Shown here piece by piece: positions 6,171-58,292 of a stretch of 64,000 bases of DNA; position 1 is the stretch's first letter; each line of letters begins with the position of its first letter. The stretch is from an uncultured Actinomycetes bacterium (GTDB lineage: Bacteria > Actinomycetota > UBA4738 > HRBIN12): positions 987,151 to 1,051,150 of the forward strand of contig CAVVOG010000003.1 of NCBI GenBank assembly GCA_963749895.1, given 5' to 3'. A program made the translations under genes and the position numbers. Under the pieces are notes generated by a model. The model was not told the DNA's origin, did not search any database, and saw only the letters and a program-made list of their open reading frames with translations.

Positions 6171-7513
6171 GTCTCGGCGTCCGGGACCGGGACGCGCACG
6201 ACCCCCTGGGCGTAGGTGCGCACCTGGCTGAGCACGCGCAGGCCGACGCGCGCGGTGACCCGGGTCCCCTCGGGCTCCGCCACCGCCTCCAGCACGTCGG
6301 CCTCGCGGTAGAGCATCGCGACCAAGTCTCCACGCGCCCACGGGATCAGCACCTCGATGTCGACCGGCGGGCGAGGGAGCGCCTCCTCGATCGCCACCAG
6401 CAAGCCGTCGATCCCCTCCCCCGTCAACGCGGAGACCGGGACCGAGCCGGGGAAGCGACGTGCCAGGCGGACACGCTCGCTGCCGGACAACGCGTCGACC
6501 TTGTTCAGGACCAAGATCTCGGGGAGATGCCCGGCGTCGATCTCGTCGAGCACCCGCCGTACGGCTTCGATCTGTCGGTCGACCGCGGGCGACGCCGCGT
6601 CGGCGATGTGCACGACCAGGTCCGAGAGGGTGACCTCCTCGAGGGTCGAGCGGAACGCCTCGACCAGGTCGTGCGGGAGCTTCTGGACGAACCCCACCGT
6701 GTCGGCGATCGTCGCCTTCCGCCCACCGGGGAGCTCGAGCTTCCTCGTCGTGGGATCGAGCGTGGCGAACAGCTGGTCCGCGACGATCACGTCGGCGCCG
6801 GTCACCCGGCGCATCAGGGTGGACTTGCCCGCGTTCGTGTACCCGGCGATCGCGACCTGGGGGACGTCCGAATCCAAGCGCCGGGCACGTTTCACGTCGC
6901 GCGTCTTCGCGAGCTGTTTCAGATCGCGACGCAGCTTCGAGATCCGGCGACGGATGTGCTGGCGGTCGACCTCGAGCTTCGTCTCCCCGCCGCCGAACCG
7001 CGTCCCGATCCCACCGCCGGACCGGCTCAGGGCTTCTCCCCAGCCACGCAGCCGCGGGAGGAGGTAGTTCAGCTGCGCGAGCTCGACCTGGGCCTTGCCC
7101 TCGCGCGACCGCGCATGGAGGGCGAATATGTCGAGGATCAGGGCCGTCCGGTCGATCACCTTGACCTTCAGGCGGGCCTCGAGGGAGCGCAGGTGCCCAG
7201 GCGTGAGCTCCTCGTCGAGGATGACCAGCCCGGCACCGGTCGCATGCAGCAGCCGGTGGAGCTCTTCGACCTTCCCCTTACCGATCCAGTACTGAGGATC
7301 GGGCTCGGAGCGGCTCTGGACGACCCGACCGACCGGCTCGGCGCCGGCGGAGTCGGCGAGCGCGGCGAGCTCGTCGAGATCGTCCTCGGCGATCCCCGGG
7401 CCGATCCCGACCAGGACCGCCTTCTCGTGGGCGATCGAGCGCCACGTGGCGGCGATCGGGGACTCGAGGATCCGATCGAGGGGATCTGTCGACGCAGGGG
7501 GTCGCTCGGGCAT
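6167..7513 (-). CDS. hflX: GTPase HflX
   Basis: HflX N-domain followed by a G-domain (GYTNAGKSTLMRRVTGADVIVADQLFATLDPTTR...DTVGFV). I placed the start at ATG 7513, 8 nt past the dapD stop. The track's longer start at 7615 would overlap dapD. Confidence 0.9.
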   Translation of the reverse strand: MPERPPASTDPLDRILESPIAATWRSIAHEKAVLVGIGPGIAEDDLDELAALADSAGAEPVGRVVQSRSEPDPQYWIGKGKVEELHRLLHATGAGLVILDEELTPGHLRSLEARLKVKVIDRTALILDIFALHARSREGKAQVELAQLNYLLPRLRGWGEALSRSGGGIGTRFGGGETKLEVDRQHIRRRISKLRRDLKQLAKTRDVKRARRLDSDVPQVAIAGYTNAGKSTLMRRVTGADVIVADQLFATLDPTTRKLELPGGRKATIADTVGFVQKLPHDLVEAFRSTLEEVTLSDLVVHIADAASPAVDRQIEAVRRVLDEIDAGHLPEILVLNKVDALSGSERVRLARRFPGSVPVSALTGEGIDGLLVAIEEALPRPPVDIEVLIPWARGDLVAMLYREADVLEAVAEPEGTRVTARVGLRVLSQVRTYAQGVVRVPVPDAET

Positions 7514-7521
7514 CTCGCGGC

Positions 7522-8346
7522 TCACCCCATCGAGGACCCGAAGTCGCGCAGGAGGTCGTTCAGCTGCACCTTCGACTCGGTCGCCTCGCTCCGATACCCG
7601 ATGATCAGCCCGCACGGTAGCCCGAAATGCCCCGCCTCGAACTCGCGGGGCCGGTTCCCGGGGATCACGATCGCGCGTGAGGGGACCCGACCTCGGTGCT
7701 CCACGGGTTCAGGGCCGGTGACGTCGATCACGGGGGTGTTCCCGGTCAGGACCACACCCGCCCCCAGCACGGCCTCGCGACCGACCCGGACCCCTTCCAC
7801 GACGATGGATCGCGAGCCGATGAACGCGCCGTCCTCGACGATCACGGGCGCTGCCTGGAGCGGCTCGAGCACGCCACCGATCCCGACCCCTCCGGCAAGG
7901 TGCACGTCGGCGCCGATCTGCGCGCAGGACCCCACCGTGGCCCACGTGTCGACCATCGTCCCGCCGCCGACCCACGCGCCGATGTTGACGTAGCTCGGCA
8001 TCAGGACGACCCCGGGCTCCAGGTGCGCGCCGTACCGGGCCGTGGCCGGTGGCACGACGCGGACCCCGAGCCCGTCGTACCCGTGCTTGAGCGGCAGCTT
8101 GTCGTGGTACTCGAACGGCCCCGCTTCGGAGGTCTCCAGACCGCGGACGCGGAAGTAGAGCAGCACGGCCTGCTTCGCCCAGGCGTTGACGCGCCAACCC
8201 TCGCCGTCCGGTTCGGCCACGCGGATCTCTCCACGGTCCAGCAGCGCGATCGCCTCCTCCACCGCCGCCGCGTCGATCGCCGCGCCCGACGCCAGGCCGT
8301 CCCACGATGCCTCGATCCGGCCGGCCAGCTCCTCCAGCTCACTCAT
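7522..8346 (-). CDS. dapD: 2,3,4,5-tetrahydropyridine-2,6-dicarboxylate N-succinyltransferase
   Basis: Left-handed beta-helix hexapeptide repeats (GAWVGGGTMVDTWATVGSCAQIGADVHLAGGVGIGGVLEP...). Start is ATG 8346, which forms an ATGA overlap with the dapC stop. Confidence 0.85.
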   Translation of the reverse strand: MSELEELAGRIEASWDGLASGAAIDAAAVEEAIALLDRGEIRVAEPDGEGWRVNAWAKQAVLLYFRVRGLETSEAGPFEYHDKLPLKHGYDGLGVRVVPPATARYGAHLEPGVVLMPSYVNIGAWVGGGTMVDTWATVGSCAQIGADVHLAGGVGIGGVLEPLQAAPVIVEDGAFIGSRSIVVEGVRVGREAVLGAGVVLTGNTPVIDVTGPEPVEHRGRVPSRAIVIPGNRPREFEAGHFGLPCGLIIGYRSEATESKVQLNDLLRDFGSSMG

Positions 8347-9521
8347 CCCTCGCCCTCCGTGAACACGCGGTCCAGCGCCTCGGCCGCTCGCTCGCACGCC
8401 TCGAGCGGCGGCACCATCGCGATCCGCACGTACCCCTCCCCCTCCGGACCGAAGAACGACCCTGGGGCCACCACGACGTTCGCACGATCGAGCAGCTCGA
8501 GGGCCCATCCCAGCGACGGCCGTCCCGCCGGCACCGCGACCCACAGGTAGAACGTGGCCTCACTCCCGGTGACCTCGACGCCGTGGCGCTCGAAGAGGTC
8601 GAGGAAGACGCGGCGCTTCGCCGCGTACCGTGCCCGATTCTGCTCCACGTGCAGCTCGTCCGCCCAGGCCGCCACGGAGGCACGCTGGACGAACTCCTGC
8701 GGGGTGACGCCGACCGCGGGACGGAGCCGCCTCAGCGCGCCGATCAGCTCGACGTCCCCGGCGATGAACCCGCTGCGGTACCCGGTCATCGACGAGCGCT
8801 TCGACAAGGTGTTGATCGCGACCACGTTGCCGTGGTCTCGCCCCGGAACCTCCAGCGCGCTCGGGGGCGGCGGGGCATCGAACCACAGCTCGCTGTATGC
8901 CTCGTCCGACGCCAACAGGACGTCATGCGCGCGGCACCGATCCACCGCCTCCTCCAGGAACGACAGGGGCGCCACCGCGCCGGTGGGGTTGTTCGGGTAG
9001 TTCAGCCACAGGATCGCGGCACGGCTCCAGGTCGCGTCGTCGATCGCGCCGAGGTCCGGCAGGAACCCCCGATCGGCGGTGAGCGGGAGCCGCCGGACCT
9101 CGCCGCCCGCGTATCGGGCCCCGCGCTCCGGGATCGGGTATCCGGGCGCCGTGACGAGGACCAGGTCCTTGCCGACGCCGGGGTCGAGGACCGCCTGCGC
9201 GAGCGAGAACACGACCTCCTTCGACCCCAGGATCGGAAGGATCTGCCGGTCGGGATCGACGTGGACACCGAAGCGACGTTCGATCCAGACCTCGATCGCG
9301 TGGCGGAGCTCGGGGAGACCGGCTGCGCGCGGGTACGACGACATCGGCGCGATCGCGTCCCTCAGGGCATCACGGATCAGCTCCGGTGTCTCCTCCCTCG
9401 GGTCGCCGACCCCGAAGTCGATCAAGGTGCGGCCTTCGGCGTGCGCGGCAGCCACGCGCCGGTCGAGCTCCTCGAACGGGTACGGCTCGACGGCACGGAT
9501 CCCCGGCGACAGGTGCGTCAT
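8343..9521 (-). CDS. dapC: Class I PLP aminotransferase, probably N-succinyldiaminopimelate aminotransferase
   Basis: Fold-type I aminotransferase with the Lys motif SKRSSMTGYRSGF. It is sandwiched between dapE and dapD with 4-nt overlaps on both sides. Confidence 0.8.
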   Translation of the reverse strand: MTHLSPGIRAVEPYPFEELDRRVAAAHAEGRTLIDFGVGDPREETPELIRDALRDAIAPMSSYPRAAGLPELRHAIEVWIERRFGVHVDPDRQILPILGSKEVVFSLAQAVLDPGVGKDLVLVTAPGYPIPERGARYAGGEVRRLPLTADRGFLPDLGAIDDATWSRAAILWLNYPNNPTGAVAPLSFLEEAVDRCRAHDVLLASDEAYSELWFDAPPPPSALEVPGRDHGNVVAINTLSKRSSMTGYRSGFIAGDVELIGALRRLRPAVGVTPQEFVQRASVAAWADELHVEQNRARYAAKRRVFLDLFERHGVEVTGSEATFYLWVAVPAGRPSLGWALELLDRANVVVAPGSFFGPEGEGYVRIAMVPPLEACERAAEALDRVFTEGEG

Positions 9522-51419: not shown

Positions 51420-52637
51420 TCAGGGCAGTCGATCGAGGCCCGCGAGGATCTCCTCGGGGAGGTCGGTCAAGGCGACGGAGGCGGTGTCGCCGGTGTGGCG
51501 GAGCGTCAGATCGCCCAGGCCGTCGGCGACACCGCGGGTTCCCACCGTCGCCCGCAGCGGCGACCCGAGCAGGTCGGCGTCGGCGAACTTGCGCCCGGCC
51601 CGCTCGACCCGGTCGTCGAGGTAGACCGTGGCGCCGCCCGCCTCGAGCGCGTCGTGGAGGTCGGCGGCTGCGGCCGCGGCCCGGGTGTCGTCGGGCGTGA
51701 CCAGCACGACCGTCACCGCGAACGGGGCGAGCGCCCGCGGCCACACCGGCCCCTTCTCGTCGGCGCACCGGACGGCGGTCGCCCGGACGAGCGCCTCGGG
51801 GTCGACCACGCTATCGCGGGCGACCACGAGCCCCCGGCGGGCCTGCAAGGGCGTCCCGCACGCCGGACACGGGTCGCCCTCGCGTGCGGGCACGAGGTCG
51901 GCCCAGGTGTCGACGGCCACATCGCGGCCGATCACGAGCCCCTTCACGTGGTGATCGTCGAGGTTCGCTCCGGCCGCCCACGCCCCGCGGGAGGCGACGC
52001 CGTGATCGGCCACGACCGTCGCCCCCGGATGGTCGTGGGGACCCATGAACCCCTTGGAAAGCTCGCGACGGGCGAAGCCGTCCTCGTCGAGCCGCGCGAG
52101 CGTCCCCGGCGCGACCACCGCGGCGAGCTTGCCCTCGTCGACGGCACGGTCCCCGGGCACGATCGCGAGGAGCAGGGCCCCGTCGACCTCGTAGGCCATC
52201 GTCTTGAGGTTCGCCTCGACCGGCAGGCCGAGCGCCTCGGCCGCCGTCTTCATCGTGGTCGCCCCGGGCGTCGGCACGACCTCGAGGACCGCTGAGCCGT
52301 CCGGCGGCACGGGCTCGGGAACCCGGCGGGAGGCCGCCGAAAGGGTGGCGGCGTCTCCGCACGATGGGCAGACGAGCAGCCGTAAGTCGCCCTCGTCGAT
52401 CGTCACGACCGAGAGCGACGCGTCCGCGTCGCGGGCCGCGATCACGTCGAGGCCGACCGCCGCGGGGTCGAGCGAGCTTGCACGCTCGAACACACGCTCT
52501 CCGAGCCAGGTCCGCTCGAGCGACCCGTCGACGTTGCGGACGAGGTACCCGCCACGGACCAAGAGGCGGTCGGCCTCGCCGCGGACGCCCGCAGGCGCAT
52601 CGCGGAGCGTGGCGATCGTGTGCTCGGTGGCGCGCAT
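51420..52637 (-). CDS. Truncated ProRS-like protein retaining the N-terminal segment, INS editing domain and anticodon-binding domain, but lacking class II catalytic motifs 2 and 3
   Basis: The N-terminus MRATEHTIATLRDAPAGV..ADRLLVRGGYLVR matches bacterial ProRS. An INS/YbaK-like block (VVPTPGATTMKTAAEALGLPVEANLKTMAYEV...) and an anticodon-binding block (...VWPRALAPFAVTVVLV...YLDDRVERAGRKFADADLLGSP) follow. At 405 aa it is about 170 aa shorter than bacterial ProRS. The FRDE/MKDAYSF and GCYGIG motifs are absent. Confidence 0.7.
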   Translation of the reverse strand: MRATEHTIATLRDAPAGVRGEADRLLVRGGYLVRNVDGSLERTWLGERVFERASSLDPAAVGLDVIAARDADASLSVVTIDEGDLRLLVCPSCGDAATLSAASRRVPEPVPPDGSAVLEVVPTPGATTMKTAAEALGLPVEANLKTMAYEVDGALLLAIVPGDRAVDEGKLAAVVAPGTLARLDEDGFARRELSKGFMGPHDHPGATVVADHGVASRGAWAAGANLDDHHVKGLVIGRDVAVDTWADLVPAREGDPCPACGTPLQARRGLVVARDSVVDPEALVRATAVRCADEKGPVWPRALAPFAVTVVLVTPDDTRAAAAAADLHDALEAGGATVYLDDRVERAGRKFADADLLGSPLRATVGTRGVADGLGDLTLRHTGDTASVALTDLPEEILAGLDRLP

Positions 52638-52837: not shown

Positions 52838-54313
52838 ATGGAGCTGCAGATCCGACCCGACCGGGACGAGTTCGACCGCCTCGCGGCCGACTGGCCGCTG
52901 GTCCCCGTCTGGGCGGAGCTGCTCGCCGACGTCGCCACCCCCGTGGGCCTGTTCGACGCCGTCGCCGGCGACGGCCCCGGGATCCTGCTCGAGTCGGTCG
53001 AGCGCTCGGAGCGCTGGGGCCGCTACTCGTTCGTCGCCGGCGATCCGGCGGCGACCCTCGTGGTCGACCGCGACGGCGCCCGACTCGAGGACGTCGCGCG
53101 TGACCTCCCGGCGGTCCCGGACGCGGAACCTCGCGAGGCCCTGACCCTGTTCGCCCACGCGCTCCGGGGACCGCGGCTCCCCGACCTCCCGCCGCTCACC
53201 GGAGGGCTGATGGGGATGCTCGCGTACGAGGCCGCCGGCCTCCTCGACGGACATCCCGCCCCGCGCGCCGACGATGCGCCGTGCCCGCCGATCTCGCTGC
53301 TCGTGATCGACCGCGCCGTCGTGTTCGATCACTGGCGCCAGCGGATCGTGCTGGTGGCCCACGCCCCGGCCGGCGGCTACGACGACGCCGTGGCCGCGCT
53401 CGGCGAGCTCGCCCGGAAGATCGCCGGCGCCACCCCCCCGCCGATCGCCCAGATGGGCTCGCCCGATCTGGCCGACGGCGACCCGAACATGCCCGATCAG
53501 CGCTACCGCGACACCGTCGCCACCTTCAAGGAGCACATCCTCGCCGGCGACATCTTCCAGGGCGTCCCCTCGCGTCGGGTCTCGTTCCCGGCGCCCGGGG
53601 GCGGCTTCCCGATCTACCGGCGTCTGCGGGTCACGAACCCCGCGCCCTACATGTTCTATCTCCGGCTGGGTTCGATGGAGCTCGCCGGCTCCTCACCCGA
53701 GCCGCTCGTGCGCGTCGAAGGCCGCCGCGTCTCGACCCGCCCGATCGCCGGCACCCGTCCCCGCGGCCAGACCGAGGTCCGCGACCGCCTCCTGGAGCAC
53801 GAGCTGCTCGCCGACCCGAAGGAGCAGGCCGAGCACGCGATGCTCGTCGACCTCGCCCGTAACGACCTCGGGCGCGTCTGCGTCCCCGGCTCGGTCCGCC
53901 CGACCGAGCTGATGCAGGTCGAGCGGTTCACGAAGGTGATGCACATCGTCTCGACCGTGGAGGGCGAGCTCCGCGAGGACCAGCACGCCCTCGACGCGCT
54001 CGCCGTGACCTTCCCCGCCGGCACCGTCACCGGCGCCCCGAAACGCCGAGCGATGGAGCTGATCGCCGAGCACGAGCCGACCCCCCGCGGCCCCTACGCC
54101 GGCGCGGTCGGGTACCTCACGTTCGCCGGCGACCTCGACTTCTGCATCACGATCCGCACCGCGGTCGTCACCGACGGCGTCGTGAGCGTCCAGGCCGGCG
54201 CCGGCGTCGTCGCCGACTCCGACCCCGAGACCGAGCTCCGCGAGACGAAGGCGAAGGCCGCCGGTCTGATCCCGGCCGTGGCGCCGGCAGGCGCGAAGGA
54301 GACCGCCCGATGA
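52838..54313 (+). CDS. Anthranilate synthase component I family (TrpE/PabB chorismate-utilizing enzyme)
   Basis: LLESxERxxxGRYSF motif and the chorismate-binding C-terminal domain. Forms an ATGA overlap with the downstream amidotransferase. Confidence 0.9.
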   Translation: MELQIRPDRDEFDRLAADWPLVPVWAELLADVATPVGLFDAVAGDGPGILLESVERSERWGRYSFVAGDPAATLVVDRDGARLEDVARDLPAVPDAEPREALTLFAHALRGPRLPDLPPLTGGLMGMLAYEAAGLLDGHPAPRADDAPCPPISLLVIDRAVVFDHWRQRIVLVAHAPAGGYDDAVAALGELARKIAGATPPPIAQMGSPDLADGDPNMPDQRYRDTVATFKEHILAGDIFQGVPSRRVSFPAPGGGFPIYRRLRVTNPAPYMFYLRLGSMELAGSSPEPLVRVEGRRVSTRPIAGTRPRGQTEVRDRLLEHELLADPKEQAEHAMLVDLARNDLGRVCVPGSVRPTELMQVERFTKVMHIVSTVEGELREDQHALDALAVTFPAGTVTGAPKRRAMELIAEHEPTPRGPYAGAVGYLTFAGDLDFCITIRTAVVTDGVVSVQAGAGVVADSDPETELRETKAKAAGLIPAVAPAGAKETAR

Positions 54314-54876
54314 TCCTCGTCGTCGACCACTACGACTCGTTCACCTACAACCTCGTCCAGCTCGTCGAGTCGCTCGGCCGCGACACGACGGTCGTGAAGT
54401 CGGACGAGAAGCCCGCCGACGAGTTGGTCACCCTCGAGCCCGAGGCGGTGATCCTCTCCCCCGGCCCCGGCCACCCCCGCGACGCCGGCTGCTTCACCGA
54501 GCTGCTCGACACCCTGCCCGCCACGACCCCCGTGCTCGGCGTGTGCCTCGGCCACCAGGCCCTCGGCCTGCAGTGCGGCGGCACGGTCGACCGCGCCGCC
54601 CCGGTCCACGGCAAGGCCTCGCTCGTCTACCACGAGGGCCGCGGGATCCTCGAGGGCGTCACCGTCCCGTTCGAGGCGGGCCGCTACCACTCGCTCGTCG
54701 TCGAACGCGACGACCTGCCCGAGGAGCTCGAGCTCACCGCCTGGACCGAGGACGGTCTCGTGATGGCCGCCCAGCACCGCGAGCTGCCGCGGTTCGGCGT
54801 CCAGTTCCACCCCGAGAGCATCCTGACCCCCGAGGGCCCCAGGATCGTCGAGAACTTCCTGCGCCTCGCGAGCTGA
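54310..54876 (+). CDS. Glutamine amidotransferase component II (TrpG/PabA)
   Basis: Class I GATase triad (GVCLGHQ...HPES). Confidence 0.9.
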   Translation: MILVVDHYDSFTYNLVQLVESLGRDTTVVKSDEKPADELVTLEPEAVILSPGPGHPRDAGCFTELLDTLPATTPVLGVCLGHQALGLQCGGTVDRAAPVHGKASLVYHEGRGILEGVTVPFEAGRYHSLVVERDDLPEELELTAWTEDGLVMAAQHRELPRFGVQFHPESILTPEGPRIVENFLRLAS

Positions 54877-54885
54877 CGGGTTCGG

Positions 54886-55344
54886 TCAAGGTTGCCGGGT
54901 ACCCTGCTCCGCGCACTCGCGACCGACGCGTTCGATCCTGAGGAGCATCGCGGCAGACGGCGTCACCTTGCCGCTCGCGTAGGTGCTCAGTCGGGGCGCG
55001 CTGGTCCCCACCATCTCCGCGAACCTCGCGCTGGTGAGACCCGATCTGGCCACGGCCTCCCGTACCCTCGCGGCGGCCTCCCGTCGATCGGCACGATCCG
55101 CGTCGGCGCGCGCCCGATCGATCGCGAGGGAGAAGAGCATGCTCACCTGGTCCGGCTCGCGATACGAGAGGTACCGCTCGACCCGACGCGCCACCCGTCC
55201 CCACGGCGAACGGCGGATCTCGGCGAAGACGGGCTTCCAGTCCGACACGAGGCCCCTGTCGATCACGATGACGAGCGCTTCGTAGGGCCAGGTGCGGACG
55301 TCGTCGGTCGGGGACGCGTCGACGTTGCGGAACTCGACCGGCAT
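54886..55344 (-). CDS. Small protein with a C-terminal XRE-like HTH (putative antitoxin/regulator partner of the AbiEii-like gene)
   Basis: MPVEFRNVDASPTDDVRTWPYEALVIV... followed by a C-terminal HTH (GLTSARFAEMVGTSAPRLSTYASGKVTPSAAMLLRIERV). Its start overlaps the upstream gene's stop. Confidence 0.6.
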   Translation of the reverse strand: MPVEFRNVDASPTDDVRTWPYEALVIVIDRGLVSDWKPVFAEIRRSPWGRVARRVERYLSYREPDQVSMLFSLAIDRARADADRADRREAAARVREAVARSGLTSARFAEMVGTSAPRLSTYASGKVTPSAAMLLRIERVGRECAEQGTRQP

Positions 55345-56024
55345 CAGACCGCACCCGCCAGCTCGAGCGCCAGCGACCGGCACGTATCGACGACATCGCC
55401 CCACCGGTGGTAGCGCTCGTCCAAGCCCTTGTACCGGGGCAGCTCTTCGATGACGTCGCGGTCCCGCGGGCTCGGATCCGCGAGAGCGATCACCAGCGAC
55501 GTCAGGACCGAGCCCTCCTCCTCCGACCGGTCGGCGTAGTAGGCGTCGATCCCGGACAGCGTCTCGACGGCCGCTCCTTGTCCGAGGTGGTCCGCCAGCG
55601 CGACCACGTCCAGGTAGTCGCGGACGACGTTACGCTGCACGACGAGGTACGCCTTCACCCGCAGGGTCTCGGCTGCGGTCGGCGCGACCACGACCGCGCC
55701 GTCGCCGACCTCCACCTCACAGATCTCGAGAGGCCGCGTGCGCCGCATCTGGCGCAGACCGGCTTCGATGCCCCCCAGCCGACCCATGATGGTGAACGGA
55801 GGCTTGGAGGCCCGCACCGACGTCGCCCACCCCTCCGTCGCCTCCACGGCTTCGAGCACCGACTCGTACCGCTCGACGAGATCGGCGAGCACGTGGGGGT
55901 GATCGAAAGAGTCCCGATGACCGGCATGCAGCGCGGCCGCTGCCCCGCCGACGAGGACGGCGTCGGGCACGACCCCCTGGAGCCTGGCCGCCGAGATGAG
56001 AACCCGTTCCAACGTGCCGCCCAT
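55344..56024 (-). CDS. Nucleotidyltransferase-fold protein of the AbiEii/DUF1814-like family (putative type IV toxin)
   Basis: N-terminal LVGGAAAALHAGHRDSFDHPH, which resembles the AbiEii GG(S/T)AL...R.S.D.D motif with the second Asp replaced by His. C-terminal RDYLDV resembles the AbiEii RD(L/I)(Y/F)D(L/I) motif. 226 aa. Confidence 0.55.
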   Translation of the reverse strand: MGGTLERVLISAARLQGVVPDAVLVGGAAAALHAGHRDSFDHPHVLADLVERYESVLEAVEATEGWATSVRASKPPFTIMGRLGGIEAGLRQMRRTRPLEICEVEVGDGAVVVAPTAAETLRVKAYLVVQRNVVRDYLDVVALADHLGQGAAVETLSGIDAYYADRSEEEGSVLTSLVIALADPSPRDRDVIEELPRYKGLDERYHRWGDVVDTCRSLALELAGAV

Positions 56025-56034
56025 CGACGGTGCT

Positions 56035-56048
56035 TATCAGATCTGATA
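56035..56048. promoter_or_regulatory. Perfect AT-rich 14-bp palindrome TATCAGATCTGATA, 11 nt upstream of the AbiEii-like gene start; candidate operator
   Basis: Exact inverted repeat in a genome that is otherwise about 70% GC. Its position immediately 5' of the two-gene module is typical of autoregulated toxin-antitoxin operators. Confidence 0.5.
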
Positions 56049-56116
56049 TGACTCGTGCAAGCACCGGGATCAGAGCGCGTCCGAAGCAGGGGTTCGCGTC
56101 AGGTCGTGTCGTTGAG

Positions 56117-57076
56117 CTACGGCGCAGGGCACCCCGGGCCGTGCTCGAACCTCGCGGAGTTCGAGGCCACCCGGCACGCGCTCGCGTCGACGGCCTGGAA
56201 CGCCTTCGCGGGGACGGACTTCAGCTCGTCGAGGAGATCGTTCGTCCAGCGCGGGTCTCGCGTGCCCTGGAAGTACCAGTCGCTCCCGTTGTCGCCGACG
56301 ATCAGGCCGTGGGTCTGCATCGCGCGCAGGATCGTGCGGGCGTCGGGGCTGAACCCGGCCAACGAGAACCCGGCCTTGAGGCGGAACCTCGCGCCCATCG
56401 GGGGGCACTTCCGGCCGCCGGTGGCGGCGTGGTGACGCGCCGGCCACAGGTACCTCGCGGATGTGCACGAGGCGGTGACGCGGATCGCGTGGTCGATCTC
56501 GTCGCCGGCGACCTCGTCGTAGCGCAGGAGCCCGGCGAACACCGGGAGCCCCGCGGCGTCGGCGCTCGTCCAGCCGGCGGGACGGAGGCGGTTCGCACCC
56601 GGGCCTTCGAGGGGGAAGACGGCGCCGCTGCCGGCGGTCGGGTCGCCGTCGTTCCAGCGGGCGGCGAACAGCTCGTAGAGCGTGCAGTCGCTGCGGTCGA
56701 TCATCAGCGCGTGGCGATCGGAGCCACCCTCGATCGGGGTGGCGGCGCCGAACGGGTAGGGGCCGGGGTCGCTCTCATCGTCGTAGGTGAACCGGATCGC
56801 CACGTCCGGGTGGCCGGCATCGACGACATCGAAGGGCATCCCGTACGAGGGCGGGCCGAAGTCGGGGTGGAGCAGCGTCCCGCGCGCGTGCATCGAGCGC
56901 TTCCAGACGTCGCTGCGGGGGTGGACGGGCAGGTTCGACACGTCGAGGTGCCAGACGTTCGACGCGGGGAAGACCCGGCACTCGGTGCCGGGGATCTGGT
57001 GGGCCGCTGCGGGCGTCAGCCCTGCGGCGGCAAGCGCAACGATCGCGACGACGAGGGAGTACCTGGAACGACGCAC
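56117..57076 (-). CDS. Secreted hypothetical protein (signal peptide, 319 aa)
   Basis: GTG start followed by a signal peptide (RRSRYSLVVAIVALAAAGLTPAAAHQ). No family recognized. Confidence 0.6.
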   Translation of the reverse strand: MRRSRYSLVVAIVALAAAGLTPAAAHQIPGTECRVFPASNVWHLDVSNLPVHPRSDVWKRSMHARGTLLHPDFGPPSYGMPFDVVDAGHPDVAIRFTYDDESDPGPYPFGAATPIEGGSDRHALMIDRSDCTLYELFAARWNDGDPTAGSGAVFPLEGPGANRLRPAGWTSADAAGLPVFAGLLRYDEVAGDEIDHAIRVTASCTSARYLWPARHHAATGGRKCPPMGARFRLKAGFSLAGFSPDARTILRAMQTHGLIVGDNGSDWYFQGTRDPRWTNDLLDELKSVPAKAFQAVDASACRVASNSARFEHGPGCPAP

Positions 57077-57119
57077 CTGTTCGTCATCGGCATCCGGGGC
57101 CGCTACGGTTGACCCTCAC

Positions 57120-58292
57120 ATGGCCCATCGAGGCGCGACCCGCGGGATCATCGAGGCGACCCCGACCGCCCTGTTGGTGGCCCTGATCGCGGTCCGCGTC
57201 CTGGTCGTCGGCGTGGTGATCGCCGACGCGGGCCGTCACGGCGTCGACGATCCGGTCGTGCTGCGGGCCAACGCGGTCGCGTCGTCGCCTGCCTCGCCGT
57301 GGAAGGGGTTCCCGGTCGCCTCGATGCCGGTCGAGACCGCGCTGATGCATGTGGTCGGGGGCGACTCCCCGACCTCGACCGCGGTCCGCATGGCGCTCCT
57401 CGCGTTCGTCGCGGACCTCGCCGTGTTCGTCGGGGTCGGGTTCGCGTGGGGGCGCCGGGCCGCCTGCACGTACCTGCTGCTGGCGCTGCCGCTGCTGCCG
57501 ATGCTCTACCGGCGGTTCGACCTGGTCTCGGTGGCGCTCGCGACGTGGGGGGCGGCGTTGCTCACCCGTCGCGGCGACGACGAGGTCGGGAGCCCCGGGA
57601 TCGCGTTGGGGCTCGCGATCTGGACGAAGCTCTGGCCGATCGTGCTGCTGCCGGTGCTGTTCCTGCGGCGGGCGCAGCGGTCGCTGCTCGCGACGGGGGG
57701 GCTCGTGCTCCTGGGTGGCGTCGCCTGGTTCTTCGTCGGGGGCAAGAAGGCGCCGTTCCAGGTACTGACGCTCCGAGACGCGGTCGGCTGGTCGGTCGAG
57801 GGCACGGTCGGGAGCACGCTCAGAGCGTTCGGGCTGGCCGGGCCGTGGAACACGGATGGGAACACGGTCCGCTTCGGGACGGTGCCGGGGCTCGCGGAGC
57901 CACTGCTCTTGCTTGCGCTGCTCGCGCTGCTCGGGCTCGTGTGGTGGGGAGCGTCGAGGGAACCGCGGCGCGATCCGTTCGGGGCGACCTCGCTCGCGGC
58001 GATCGCCGCGCTGCTCGTGTGCGCGCCGCTCGTGGCCGCGCAGTACGTGGCCTGGCTCGTGCCTTGGACGGCCGTGGCGTTCGAGGCGGACGAGCCCGAG
58101 CGGGAGGTCGCGGTCGCCTCGACCGTCGCGATCGTCCTGACCGGGTTGACGCAGCTGGTCACGGTCGGCGAGGGGTGGGTCGACGCGTGGCTCCTGTTCG
58201 CCCGGAACCTGGCGCTGGTCACGGTGGTCGGGCTGTGGATCGTGCCGGCGCTGCTGCCGAGCCGCACGACCGACGCCGCGCACGCGGCCTGA
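57120..58292 (+). CDS. Polytopic membrane protein, GT-C-type glycosyltransferase-like (DUF2029/GT87-like)
   Basis: About 10 TM helices, with loop Arg/Asp residues typical of GT-C mannosyl/arabinosyl transferases. I placed the start at ATG 57120. Upstream track codons are artifact. Confidence 0.65.
   Translation: MAHRGATRGIIEATPTALLVALIAVRVLVVGVVIADAGRHGVDDPVVLRANAVASSPASPWKGFPVASMPVETALMHVVGGDSPTSTAVRMALLAFVADLAVFVGVGFAWGRRAACTYLLLALPLLPMLYRRFDLVSVALATWGAALLTRRGDDEVGSPGIALGLAIWTKLWPIVLLPVLFLRRAQRSLLATGGLVLLGGVAWFFVGGKKAPFQVLTLRDAVGWSVEGTVGSTLRAFGLAGPWNTDGNTVRFGTVPGLAEPLLLLALLALLGLVWWGASREPRRDPFGATSLAAIAALLVCAPLVAAQYVAWLVPWTAVAFEADEPEREVAVASTVAIVLTGLTQLVTVGEGWVDAWLLFARNLALVTVVGLWIVPALLPSRTTDAAHAA

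Follow-up and report, generated by a model that had tools for sequence, protein, structure and literature searches.

A candidate toxin-antitoxin-type module of a DUF1814-type nucleotidyltransferase and an XRE-domain partner in an uncultured Actinomycetes bacterium

Two overlapping genes next to trpG/pabA

In contig CAVVOG010000003.1 of an uncultured Actinomycetes bacterium (assembly GCA_963749895.1), a stretch of 64,000 nucleotides (nt; positions 987,151 to 1,051,150, hereafter the window) contains two minus-strand genes, termed A and B, that are described here as a candidate toxin-antitoxin-type module (Table 1). The original prediction for this DNA had placed two overlapping minus-strand genes at this site, encoding proteins of 226 and 152 amino acids (aa) and lying 9 nt from trpG/pabA. 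The sequence bears this out: the TGA of A (55346-55344) and the ATG of B (55344-55342) have 1 nt in common, and 9 nt separate the stop codons of B and trpG/pabA. A and B are real genes rather than chance open reading frames (ORFs), given that both have many homologues (>3000 for A and >1100 for B, the top 120 of each being 73-96% identical) and low ratios of nonsynonymous to synonymous substitution rates (dN/dS; median pairwise values of 0.135 for A and 0.185 for B at dS of ~1.2-1.3). These ratios indicate that A and B are both under purifying selection. Recent horizontal transfer, considered as a cause of the high identity of A and B, was ruled out by the dS of ~1.2-1.3.

The survey of the operon structure covered 80 genome loci, with one locus for each GTDB species and most of them from metagenome-assembled genomes (MAGs) of Acidimicrobiia, and two others. 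B was found directly downstream of A in all 82 loci, and the A/B junction was TGATG, ATGA or GTGA in nearly all of them. The pair is thus co-conserved in related genomes, and its gene order, with the putative toxin first, is indeed the reverse of that in the AbiE and MenAT systems, as had been predicted; in the latter, the toxin gene is downstream of the antitoxin gene (PMC7450476, PMC3985639).

Table 1. Coordinates of A, B and associated features in the window
Feature	Position	Strand	Description
Gene A	55344..56024	-	226 aa, ATG start; putative toxin, DUF1814 (AbiEii/MenT-like) nucleotidyltransferase
Gene B	54886..55344	-	152 aa, counted from the ATG at 55344; putative antitoxin and autorepressor
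TGATG stop/start overlap of A and B	55342..55346	-	From sequence; translational coupling
Operator-like palindrome ATATCAGATCTGATAA	56034..56049	.	9 nt upstream of the ATG of A
A, motif I, Gly26-Gly27 (hG[G/S])	55944..55949	-	From alignments; in register with canonical AbiEii GG
A, motif II, R37-D-S39-F-D41-H-P43	55896..55916	-	Arg, Ser and first Asp kept; second Asp replaced by Pro
A, motif III (K124-x6-R131) and motif IV (R135-D-Y-L-D139)	55608..55655	-	From alignments
B, residues 1-80	55105..55344	-	Unannotated partner domain, putatively toxin-neutralising (FRNVDA...WPYEALVxVIDRGLVxDW...)
B, residues 91-140	54925..55074	-	XRE/Cro-C1 helix-turn-helix DNA-binding domain (Pfam HTH_31, HTH_3)
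trpG/pabA	54310..54876	+	Pfam GATase; convergent with B
319-aa ORF upstream of A	56117..57076	-	No Pfam match

Family, fold and motifs of A

Searches of Pfam, NCBIfam, PADLOC and PHROGs returned nothing above threshold for A, and sequence and profile searches against PDB chains returned chance matches only. The match to Pfam AbiEii (PF08843) was confined to residues 109-181 and, at 13.5 bits (E = 0.07), did not reach the gathering cut-off of 22.5 bits. An exhaustive search for the A family among 1.84 billion cluster representatives at E <= 1e-3 found 1079 clusters. In an alignment of 54 diverse members, which are 31-84% identical to A, PF08843 was matched independently by 29 members at E <= 0.01 (best E = 4.4e-11), and a precomputed PF08843 match was present on some relatives of A. 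The PADLOC AbiEii models gave E values of ~3e-3 to 8e-3 for relatives of A, compared to 1e-79 for a canonical control. With the 54-member alignment as input, AlphaFold2 modeled A with high confidence (predicted local distance difference test score, pLDDT, 96.3; predicted template modeling score, pTM, 0.92), and the model is predicted to have a Pol-beta-type nucleotidyltransferase fold like those of solved DUF1814 toxins. The top Foldseek matches in the PDB were MenT1 (8an5, 8an4), JHP933 (4ok0, 4o8s) and MenT3/TglT (6y5u, 6j7s), all with a probability of 1.00 and E values from 2e-5 to 3e-4 (MenT1 8an5_B, E = 2.4e-5); poly(A)/CCA enzymes ranked below them.

Four motifs of AbiEii were defined by Dy et al. 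(PMC3985639). When the profile of the A family was aligned by hhalign with that of the canonical AbiEii from locus L002, 137 columns were in register (P = 0.009), pairing VGG with RGG, HRxSxDxDHV with LRYSEDLDYV, and E.LRIKA...RN..RDYLD with EELVATK...RRKGRDLFD. Because the two are in register, the alignment indicates that the A family carries all four AbiEii motifs. Motif I of A is V25-G26-G27, in which G26 is found in 51 and G27 in 50 of the 54 diverse members; motif III is K124-AYLVVQ-R131 and motif IV is R135-D136-Y-L-D139, in which R131, R135, D136 and D139 do not vary, and K124 is found in 53/54. The window copy conforms to motifs I, III and IV and departs from motif II at Pro43. The sequence strings from which the original prediction had recognized A as an AbiEii/DUF1814-type nucleotidyltransferase (GGAAAAL at residues 26-32, RDSFDH at 37-42 and RDYLDV at 135-140) are all present, and its assignment agrees with the Pfam matches of the relatives, the fold and the hhalign alignment; by Pfam search it held for 29 of the 54 diverse relatives and fell short for A itself. 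Alignments and model together place A as a distant, divergent member of the DUF1814 (AbiEii/MenT) nucleotidyltransferase superfamily, outside all current family models.

The antibiotic nucleotidyltransferases ANT(2'')-Ia and LnuA were also found in the fold search, with template modeling (TM) scores of ~0.45-0.6 normalized to the target, and A could accordingly be read as a small-molecule (antibiotic) nucleotidyltransferase of the ANT(2'')/Lnu type that is controlled by an XRE regulator and is no toxin. This is highly improbable, as both enzymes ranked below MenT1, JHP933 and MenT3, A has motifs III (K-x6-R) and IV (+DxxD) that are specific to DUF1814 (PMC3985639), its relatives match Pfam AbiEii and not the ANT families, and a tight overlap with a dedicated binding-domain partner is not expected of resistance genes.

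Motif II of the A family has the consensus HRDSFDHDH, which is the canonical R-x-S/T-x-D-x-D. Within it, a Ser/Thr two residues before the first catalytic Asp, as in type VII-like control, is conserved as Ser39, which was kept in 120 of the 120 closest homologues of A and in 53 of the 54 diverse members. Ser39 aligns with the phospho-acceptors MenT1 T39, MenT3 S78 and AbiEii T65 (PMC11375011; bioRxiv 10.64898/2026.01.19.700257). The second carboxylate of the motif is residue 43, and His42 is the normal middle residue of D-h-D. Thus, the original prediction of a variant metal-binding motif was right in that the second Asp is lost in the window copy; it is replaced by Pro43 (codon CCC, 55896-55898) and not by His, and the proposed DxH motif does not stand, since the family is canonical and the departure is D43P of the window copy.

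The 120 closest homologues carry D (103), G (15), H (one) or Y (one) at position 43, while the other neighboring positions of motif II are >= 97% conserved; among the diverse members, position 43 is D in 48/54. Asp43 is present in the three closest relatives of A (95-96% identical), and codon 43 is GAT or GAC in two of their contigs, L168 and L169, compared to CCC in the window, from which a tandem GA>CC change follows. The AbiEii equivalents of the motif II residues are R63, T65, D67 and D69 (PMC3985639; bioRxiv 10.64898/2026.01.19.700257), and the AbiEii mutants R63A, D67A, D69A and D69E were non-toxic (PMC3985639). Given that its second metal-binding Asp is replaced by Pro, A of the window has most likely lost some or all of its catalytic activity, whereas B and the operator are intact.

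Such losses are recurrent. In 76 non-redundant loci whose A aligned gap-free to that of the window, R37, D41 or D43 was radically substituted (to S, P, L, A, G or R) in 16, which corresponds to ~14 independent events, since the nearest relatives of nearly every variant keep an intact triad. H36, S39, R91, R95, R122, R131, R135, D136, D139 and D188 never varied in these loci, and E119 and K124 varied once each. We read the recurrent loss as repeated selection against transfer activity, as would be expected for toxins, with D43P of the window as another instance. The dN/dS of A between the window and its nearest relatives was 0.155 and 0.138, compared to 0.101 between those relatives. Because dN/dS is not raised in the window lineage, either D43P is recent, or A keeps a selected non-catalytic role and the substitution does not abolish the selected function.

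The partner domain of B and the operator

The XRE-type helix-turn-helix (HTH) that had been predicted at the C-terminus of B was recognized by Pfam (HTH_31, 27.4 bits, and HTH_3, 25.7 bits, both past cut-off), was modeled with pLDDT > 90 and was matched by Foldseek to C.AhdI, C.Csp231I, ClgR, DdrO and P22 c2. The N-terminal ~80 residues of B, with the consensus FRNVDAsPxDDVxTWPYEALVxVIDRGLVxDWxPxFAExRRSPWGxVARRVExYL, are conserved as strongly as the HTH and had no match in Pfam, NCBIfam or PDB sequences. The earlier suggestion that the module was undescribed agrees with the finding that A and the N-terminal domain of B are without a name in the curated models of Pfam, NCBIfam and PADLOC.

Two related subfamilies carry different partners. 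In 80 metagenome loci of a third subfamily, whose toxins are 40-48% identical to A, B was not found with its profile, and an ORF of ~73 aa (consensus MxHRHLNHxxxTLAAIDDVIxRGxRxDWxELR...) lay directly upstream of the toxin gene, overlapping its start, in 73/80. In a proteobacterial subfamily, whose toxin is 48% identical to A, the upstream overlapping partner has 158-169 aa and consists of an N-terminal XRE HTH (residues 6-66) and a C-terminal domain with the sequence MPHRHLT..LTKAAIEDVIxRGDxxAW. The latter domain was matched in BLASTP with both the 73-aa protein (E = 4e-9) and residues 17-55 of the window B (E = 3e-6). The hidden Markov model of the 73-aa partner missed B and the profile of B missed the 73-aa partner; because neither detects the other directly, the link between them needed the proteobacterial HTH fusion as an intermediate and a permutation-controlled hhalign comparison, in which the profiles of the B N-terminal domain and the 73-aa protein scored 21.9 (P = 0.0012), compared to a maximum of 17.4 in 200 column-permuted controls. 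Both profiles were also compared with the PDB and Pfam, and nothing credible was found. Given the BLASTP matches and the hhalign score that connect these forms, the sequences point to one partner domain in three arrangements: alone and upstream, behind an HTH and upstream, and in front of an HTH and downstream, as in the window. The coding segment of the domain abuts the toxin gene in each of them.

In four Acidimicrobiia loci (L021, L038, L053 and L063, at about 6680-7150), B lacks the HTH and keeps the domain, with a length of 83-94 aa; in L007 and L026, B is seemingly frameshifted, with degenerate HTH remnants in another frame. This modularity, with a putative neutralizing domain and an optional DNA-binding domain, is as expected of an antitoxin. 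In type VII HEPN-MNT systems, a minimal nucleotidyltransferase serves as the antitoxin, and this precedent allows a reading in which the roles are reversed, with A an antitoxin that modifies B and B the toxin. We hold this reading to be very improbable, as B has no enzymatic or HEPN domain but only an HTH and a small helical domain, the stand-alone 73-aa partner is too small for a toxin and is encoded upstream like an antitoxin, and the recurrent loss of catalytic residues suits a toxin and not an antitoxin.

Of 79 loci, 73 have a 16-nt palindrome with the family consensus TTATCAGATATGATAA in the 100 nt that precede the conserved Val8 codon of A, mostly 34-35 nt before this codon and thus 5-9 nt before the start codon of A. 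The same pattern had three matches in the remaining 751 kb of the surveyed loci, and in the 64 kb of the window ATATCAGATCTGATAA is the single match, compared to 0.07 expected. A -10-like hexamer, TATGAT, forms part of the right half of the consensus, ~7 nt away from the ATG. As this position leaves no room for a ribosome-binding site, we infer that the A-B transcript is leaderless or near-leaderless. A simple scan for consensus sigma-70 promoters and terminators found nothing. We noticed that the window operator ATATCAGATCTGATAA has C where L168, L169 and 58 of the 73 loci have A (ATATCAGATATGATAA). With this A-to-C change, which co-occurs with D43P of A in the window, the 14-nt core becomes a perfect palindrome and the -10-like TATGAT becomes TCTGAT. 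Co-occurrence, overlap, an HTH and a promoter palindrome, by which autoregulated two-gene toxin-antitoxin operons are generally recognized, are all found at the locus. Three points go beyond the original prediction: the conservation of the operator, the N-terminal domain of B, in which the real novelty lies, and the probable attenuation of the window copy.

Distribution, interpretation and comparison with known systems

The window neighbors of A and B are housekeeping genes, as had been predicted and as their Pfam annotation confirms, with trpE upstream of trpG and IspG/GcpE, a histidine kinase and a ProRS-like gene nearby. The trpG junction of the nearest strain, L168 (dS 0.14), is the same as that of the window, and synteny at the locus is kept within close clades, where A and B have evolved at roughly the rate of the genes beside them. 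Between lineages the neighborhoods are unrelated, and the 319-aa ORF upstream of A is the sole flanking gene common to the window and any of the 80 species loci. Its N-terminus resembles a signal peptide, and a 49%-identical homologue (L001, 4042-5526) lies directly upstream of A/B in one other Acidimicrobiia genome. The neighbors are MFS transporter and beta-lactamase-fold genes in L001; an FMN dehydrogenase gene and a canonical AbiE pair in L002; ABC permease, PhyH and Fic genes in L020; and acyl-CoA dehydrogenase and Ada/AlkA genes in L040.

Further observations concern the surroundings. In the window, a plus-strand ORF at 56787-58292 (501 aa from GTG) has no Pfam match and overlaps the end of the 319-aa gene by ~290 nt; its listed start is probably too far upstream, since its hydrophobic part begins later. 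The 405-aa ORF at 51420-52637 (-) has Pfam matches only to tRNA_edit and the HGTP anticodon-binding domain, and showed no class-II catalytic core at E <= 1e-5; either its start is mis-called or it is ProRS-like and lacks the core of the synthetase. The GC content is ~0.70 at the module and 0.73-0.75 around it, and this dip, being only slight, was not used as evidence of transfer. In L020, of a sponge-associated Acidimicrobiia clade, a gene for a 453-aa Fic/DOC-domain protein (7307-8668) directly follows A/B. The Nanopelagicales MAG WLWL01 has two A/B copies on separate contigs (L073, L075), and a near-identical A/B copy in a Rubrivirga (Bacteroidota) MAG (L074) reflects either transfer or mis-binning. 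It should be noted that nearly all relatives of A/B come from MAGs and that mis-binning is the probable source of some taxonomic labels (Myxococcota, Spirochaetaceae, 'Bifidobacterium breve'). At least 378 species have a relative, a count that is a lower bound and whose denominator is not fixed.

In an Acidimicrobiia MAG (L002), a canonical AbiEi_1/AbiEii pair (7216-8789) is directly downstream of A/B, and two DUF1814 systems with different antitoxins are thus adjacent. In L165 and L166 (1-7500), the proteobacterial upstream-HTH module lies amid TIR_2-TPR, PIN (VapC-like) and Eco57I-type restriction-modification genes, a context that looks like a defence or toxin-antitoxin island. These two contexts, together with AbiEii being the founding member of the superfamily (PMC3985639), would suit an active AbiE-type abortive-infection system whose selected role is phage defence rather than addiction or stress response. 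We consider such a role quite unlikely for A/B, given that the context is of housekeeping genes in most loci, the window included, that the PADLOC AbiEii models miss A and match its relatives only at E ~3e-3 to 8e-3, and that the window copy lacks Asp43.

Strong conservation across the whole class and vertical inheritance within clades would also suit a domesticated, non-toxic pair, in which A is a nucleotide-binding pseudo-enzyme or sensor that, with B, regulates its own or other promoters and for which catalysis is dispensable. About 20% of loci lack R37, D41 or D43 while keeping motifs III and IV and Ser39, and dispensable catalysis would explain this repeated loss of metal-binding residues; the dN/dS of the window D43P lineage is not raised, and MenT2 is non-toxic (PMC7450476). 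Nevertheless, the full catalytic set is kept in 80% of loci, the variants nearly all have close intact relatives, so that the losses are recent tips and not a fixed state, the palindrome occurs only once in the window, so that there is no sign of a regulon, and the neighborhoods vary as with selfish modules. On balance, a domesticated pair is rather unlikely. It is unlikely, too, that the clade as a whole is a domesticated nucleotidyltransferase-fold sensor and repressor kept across Acidimicrobiia, with A an NTP-responsive (nucleoside triphosphate-responsive) co-regulator or pseudo-enzyme and not a tRNA poison. Were this so, metal-dependent transfer would have been discarded repeatedly, while nucleotide binding (motifs III and IV), Ser39 and partner binding would have been strongly selected.

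In our view, the locus probably represents a toxin-antitoxin-type module that is autoregulated and translationally coupled and consists of a DUF1814 toxin and a cognate partner, and the copy in the window is probably disarmed. MenT1 and MenT3 nucleotidylate tRNA (PMC7450476, PMC10435456), and by analogy with them an intact A would nucleotidylate the acceptor (3') ends of tRNA and thereby block translation. As in MenA1/MenT1, MenA3/MenT3 and AbiEi/AbiEii, the N-terminal ~80 residues of B may bind A at its active site and neutralize it, and B could possibly reposition Ser39 for auto-phosphorylation of A, as in MenT1, MenT3 and AbiEii. The conservation and position of the palindrome suggest that the XRE HTH of B, alone or with A, would bind TTATCAGATATGATAA and repress the operon; bound there, B would cover the -10-like TATGAT. 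In the window genome, the toxin A is probably disarmed. Toxicity, tRNA target, neutralization by B, phosphorylation and repression are thus proposed from sequence and from analogy with characterized systems.

Several points weigh against a toxin-antitoxin-type module. The fold similarity of A to its top PDB matches is moderate (TM 0.5-0.6), aminoglycoside and lincosamide nucleotidyltransferases appear, ranked lower, in the same Foldseek list, and the window A itself fails every curated model. The N-terminal domain of B was modeled by AlphaFold2 with low confidence (pLDDT 33-56), the contact between A and B is deduced from genetics only, and MenT2, another DUF1814 protein, was non-toxic when tested (PMC7450476). 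The conservation, 75-85% identity across Acidimicrobiia families, is unusually high for toxin-antitoxin systems; inheritance is vertical in some clades; and dN/dS of A is not raised in the window lineage (0.155 against the nearest relative). A viral-contig scan found no relatives of the module, and no convincing target-site duplications or terminal inverted repeats were found around it.

The known system closest to A/B in fold and size is MenAT1; AbiE is closest in its regulatory logic, and HigBA and MqsRA are closest in gene order and in the layout of the antitoxin. MenT1 of MenAT1 (MenA1/MenT1, Rv0078B/Rv0078A, Mycobacterium tuberculosis) is the best structural match of A (8an5_B, 8an4), with 18-19% identity in the structural alignment. 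Both are compact DUF1814 nucleotidyltransferases of ~200 aa, with the R-x-[S/T]-x-D-x-D motif (in A, at the family level), and T39 of MenT1, the phospho-acceptor, has its positional counterpart in S39 of A. The small (~70 aa) helical antitoxin MenA1 is similar in size to the 73-aa partner of the third subfamily; however, MenA1 is encoded upstream, is MazE-related and is without a DNA-binding domain (PMC7450476), whereas B is downstream and fused to an XRE HTH. The profiles of the B N-terminal domain and of the 73-aa partner matched no PDB chain significantly, including MenA1 of 8an5. MenA2/MenT2 was rejected as a match, as MenA2 is a large COG4861 protein (PMC7450476) and B is not. JHP933 of Helicobacter pylori (4o8s, 4ok0), also of the DUF1814 type and near the size of A (~225-232 aa), has TM scores of ~0.55-0.59 over the full length and 13-15% identity with A.

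AbiE of Streptococcus agalactiae and MenAT3/MenAT4 share the toxin superfamily and the four motifs of A and, as is proposed for A/B, are bicistronic autoregulated operons with a DNA-binding antitoxin and promoter inverted repeats (PMC3985639, PMC7319586). They differ in that AbiEi is an upstream COG5340 winged-HTH protein with a C-terminal neutralizing domain, whereas B is downstream, has a C-terminal XRE HTH and an unrelated N-terminal domain, and A is ~60 residues shorter than AbiEii and MenT3. There is no MenA1-type (MazE-related, 68 aa) or COG4861 antitoxin upstream of A, and B matches only the XRE-type HTH_31 and HTH_3 and lies downstream; as a positive control, the canonical pair of L002 was recognized as AbiEi_1 and AbiEii. 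With the reverse gene order and without the antitoxins that define them, A/B falls outside the AbiE, MenAT1-2 and MenAT3-4 systems. The type II systems HigBA and MqsRA have the toxin-then-antitoxin order, an XRE-HTH antitoxin and a palindromic promoter operator, as found in A/B, and the layout of B, with an N-terminal toxin-binding domain and a C-terminal XRE HTH, would be MqsA-like, as is its weak match to the NCBIfam MqsA family (E = 1.6e-3). Their toxins are, however, ribonucleases with folds unrelated to A, and B lacks the CxxC zinc motifs of MqsA and has an unrelated N-terminal domain. In the literature searched, we found no DUF1814 toxin with such an XRE-fusion antitoxin, nor this partner domain, which is not proof of absence. 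The original suggestion of a variant type IV toxin-antitoxin system probably holds as to the toxin-antitoxin type of the module; the label "type IV" is out of date, since current descriptions of AbiE and MenAT have them act via antitoxin-induced auto-phosphorylation of the toxin (PMC11375011; bioRxiv 10.64898/2026.01.19.700257).

DUF1814 toxins (AbiEii, MenT1-4) form a very abundant family of toxin and phage-defence proteins, and the four MenAT pairs of M. tuberculosis use three antitoxin families, all encoded upstream of the toxin (PMC7450476, PMC11375011). The clade exposed by this analysis is large, with ~1080 clusters at 50% identity and with >3000 and >5500 proteins in two of its subfamilies, and it has no name in the present models of Pfam, NCBIfam and PADLOC. 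For annotation, two genes that are common in Acidimicrobiia as "hypothetical protein" and "HTH regulator" can now be labeled. The metal-binding residues, lost recurrently and independently, would document in a clean, natural form that toxin activity has been selected against. Another putative antitoxin domain, unannotated and found in three arrangements, would provide a natural series for how unrelated antitoxins control one enzyme fold, and this series could be used for testing the generality of antitoxin-induced auto-phosphorylation.

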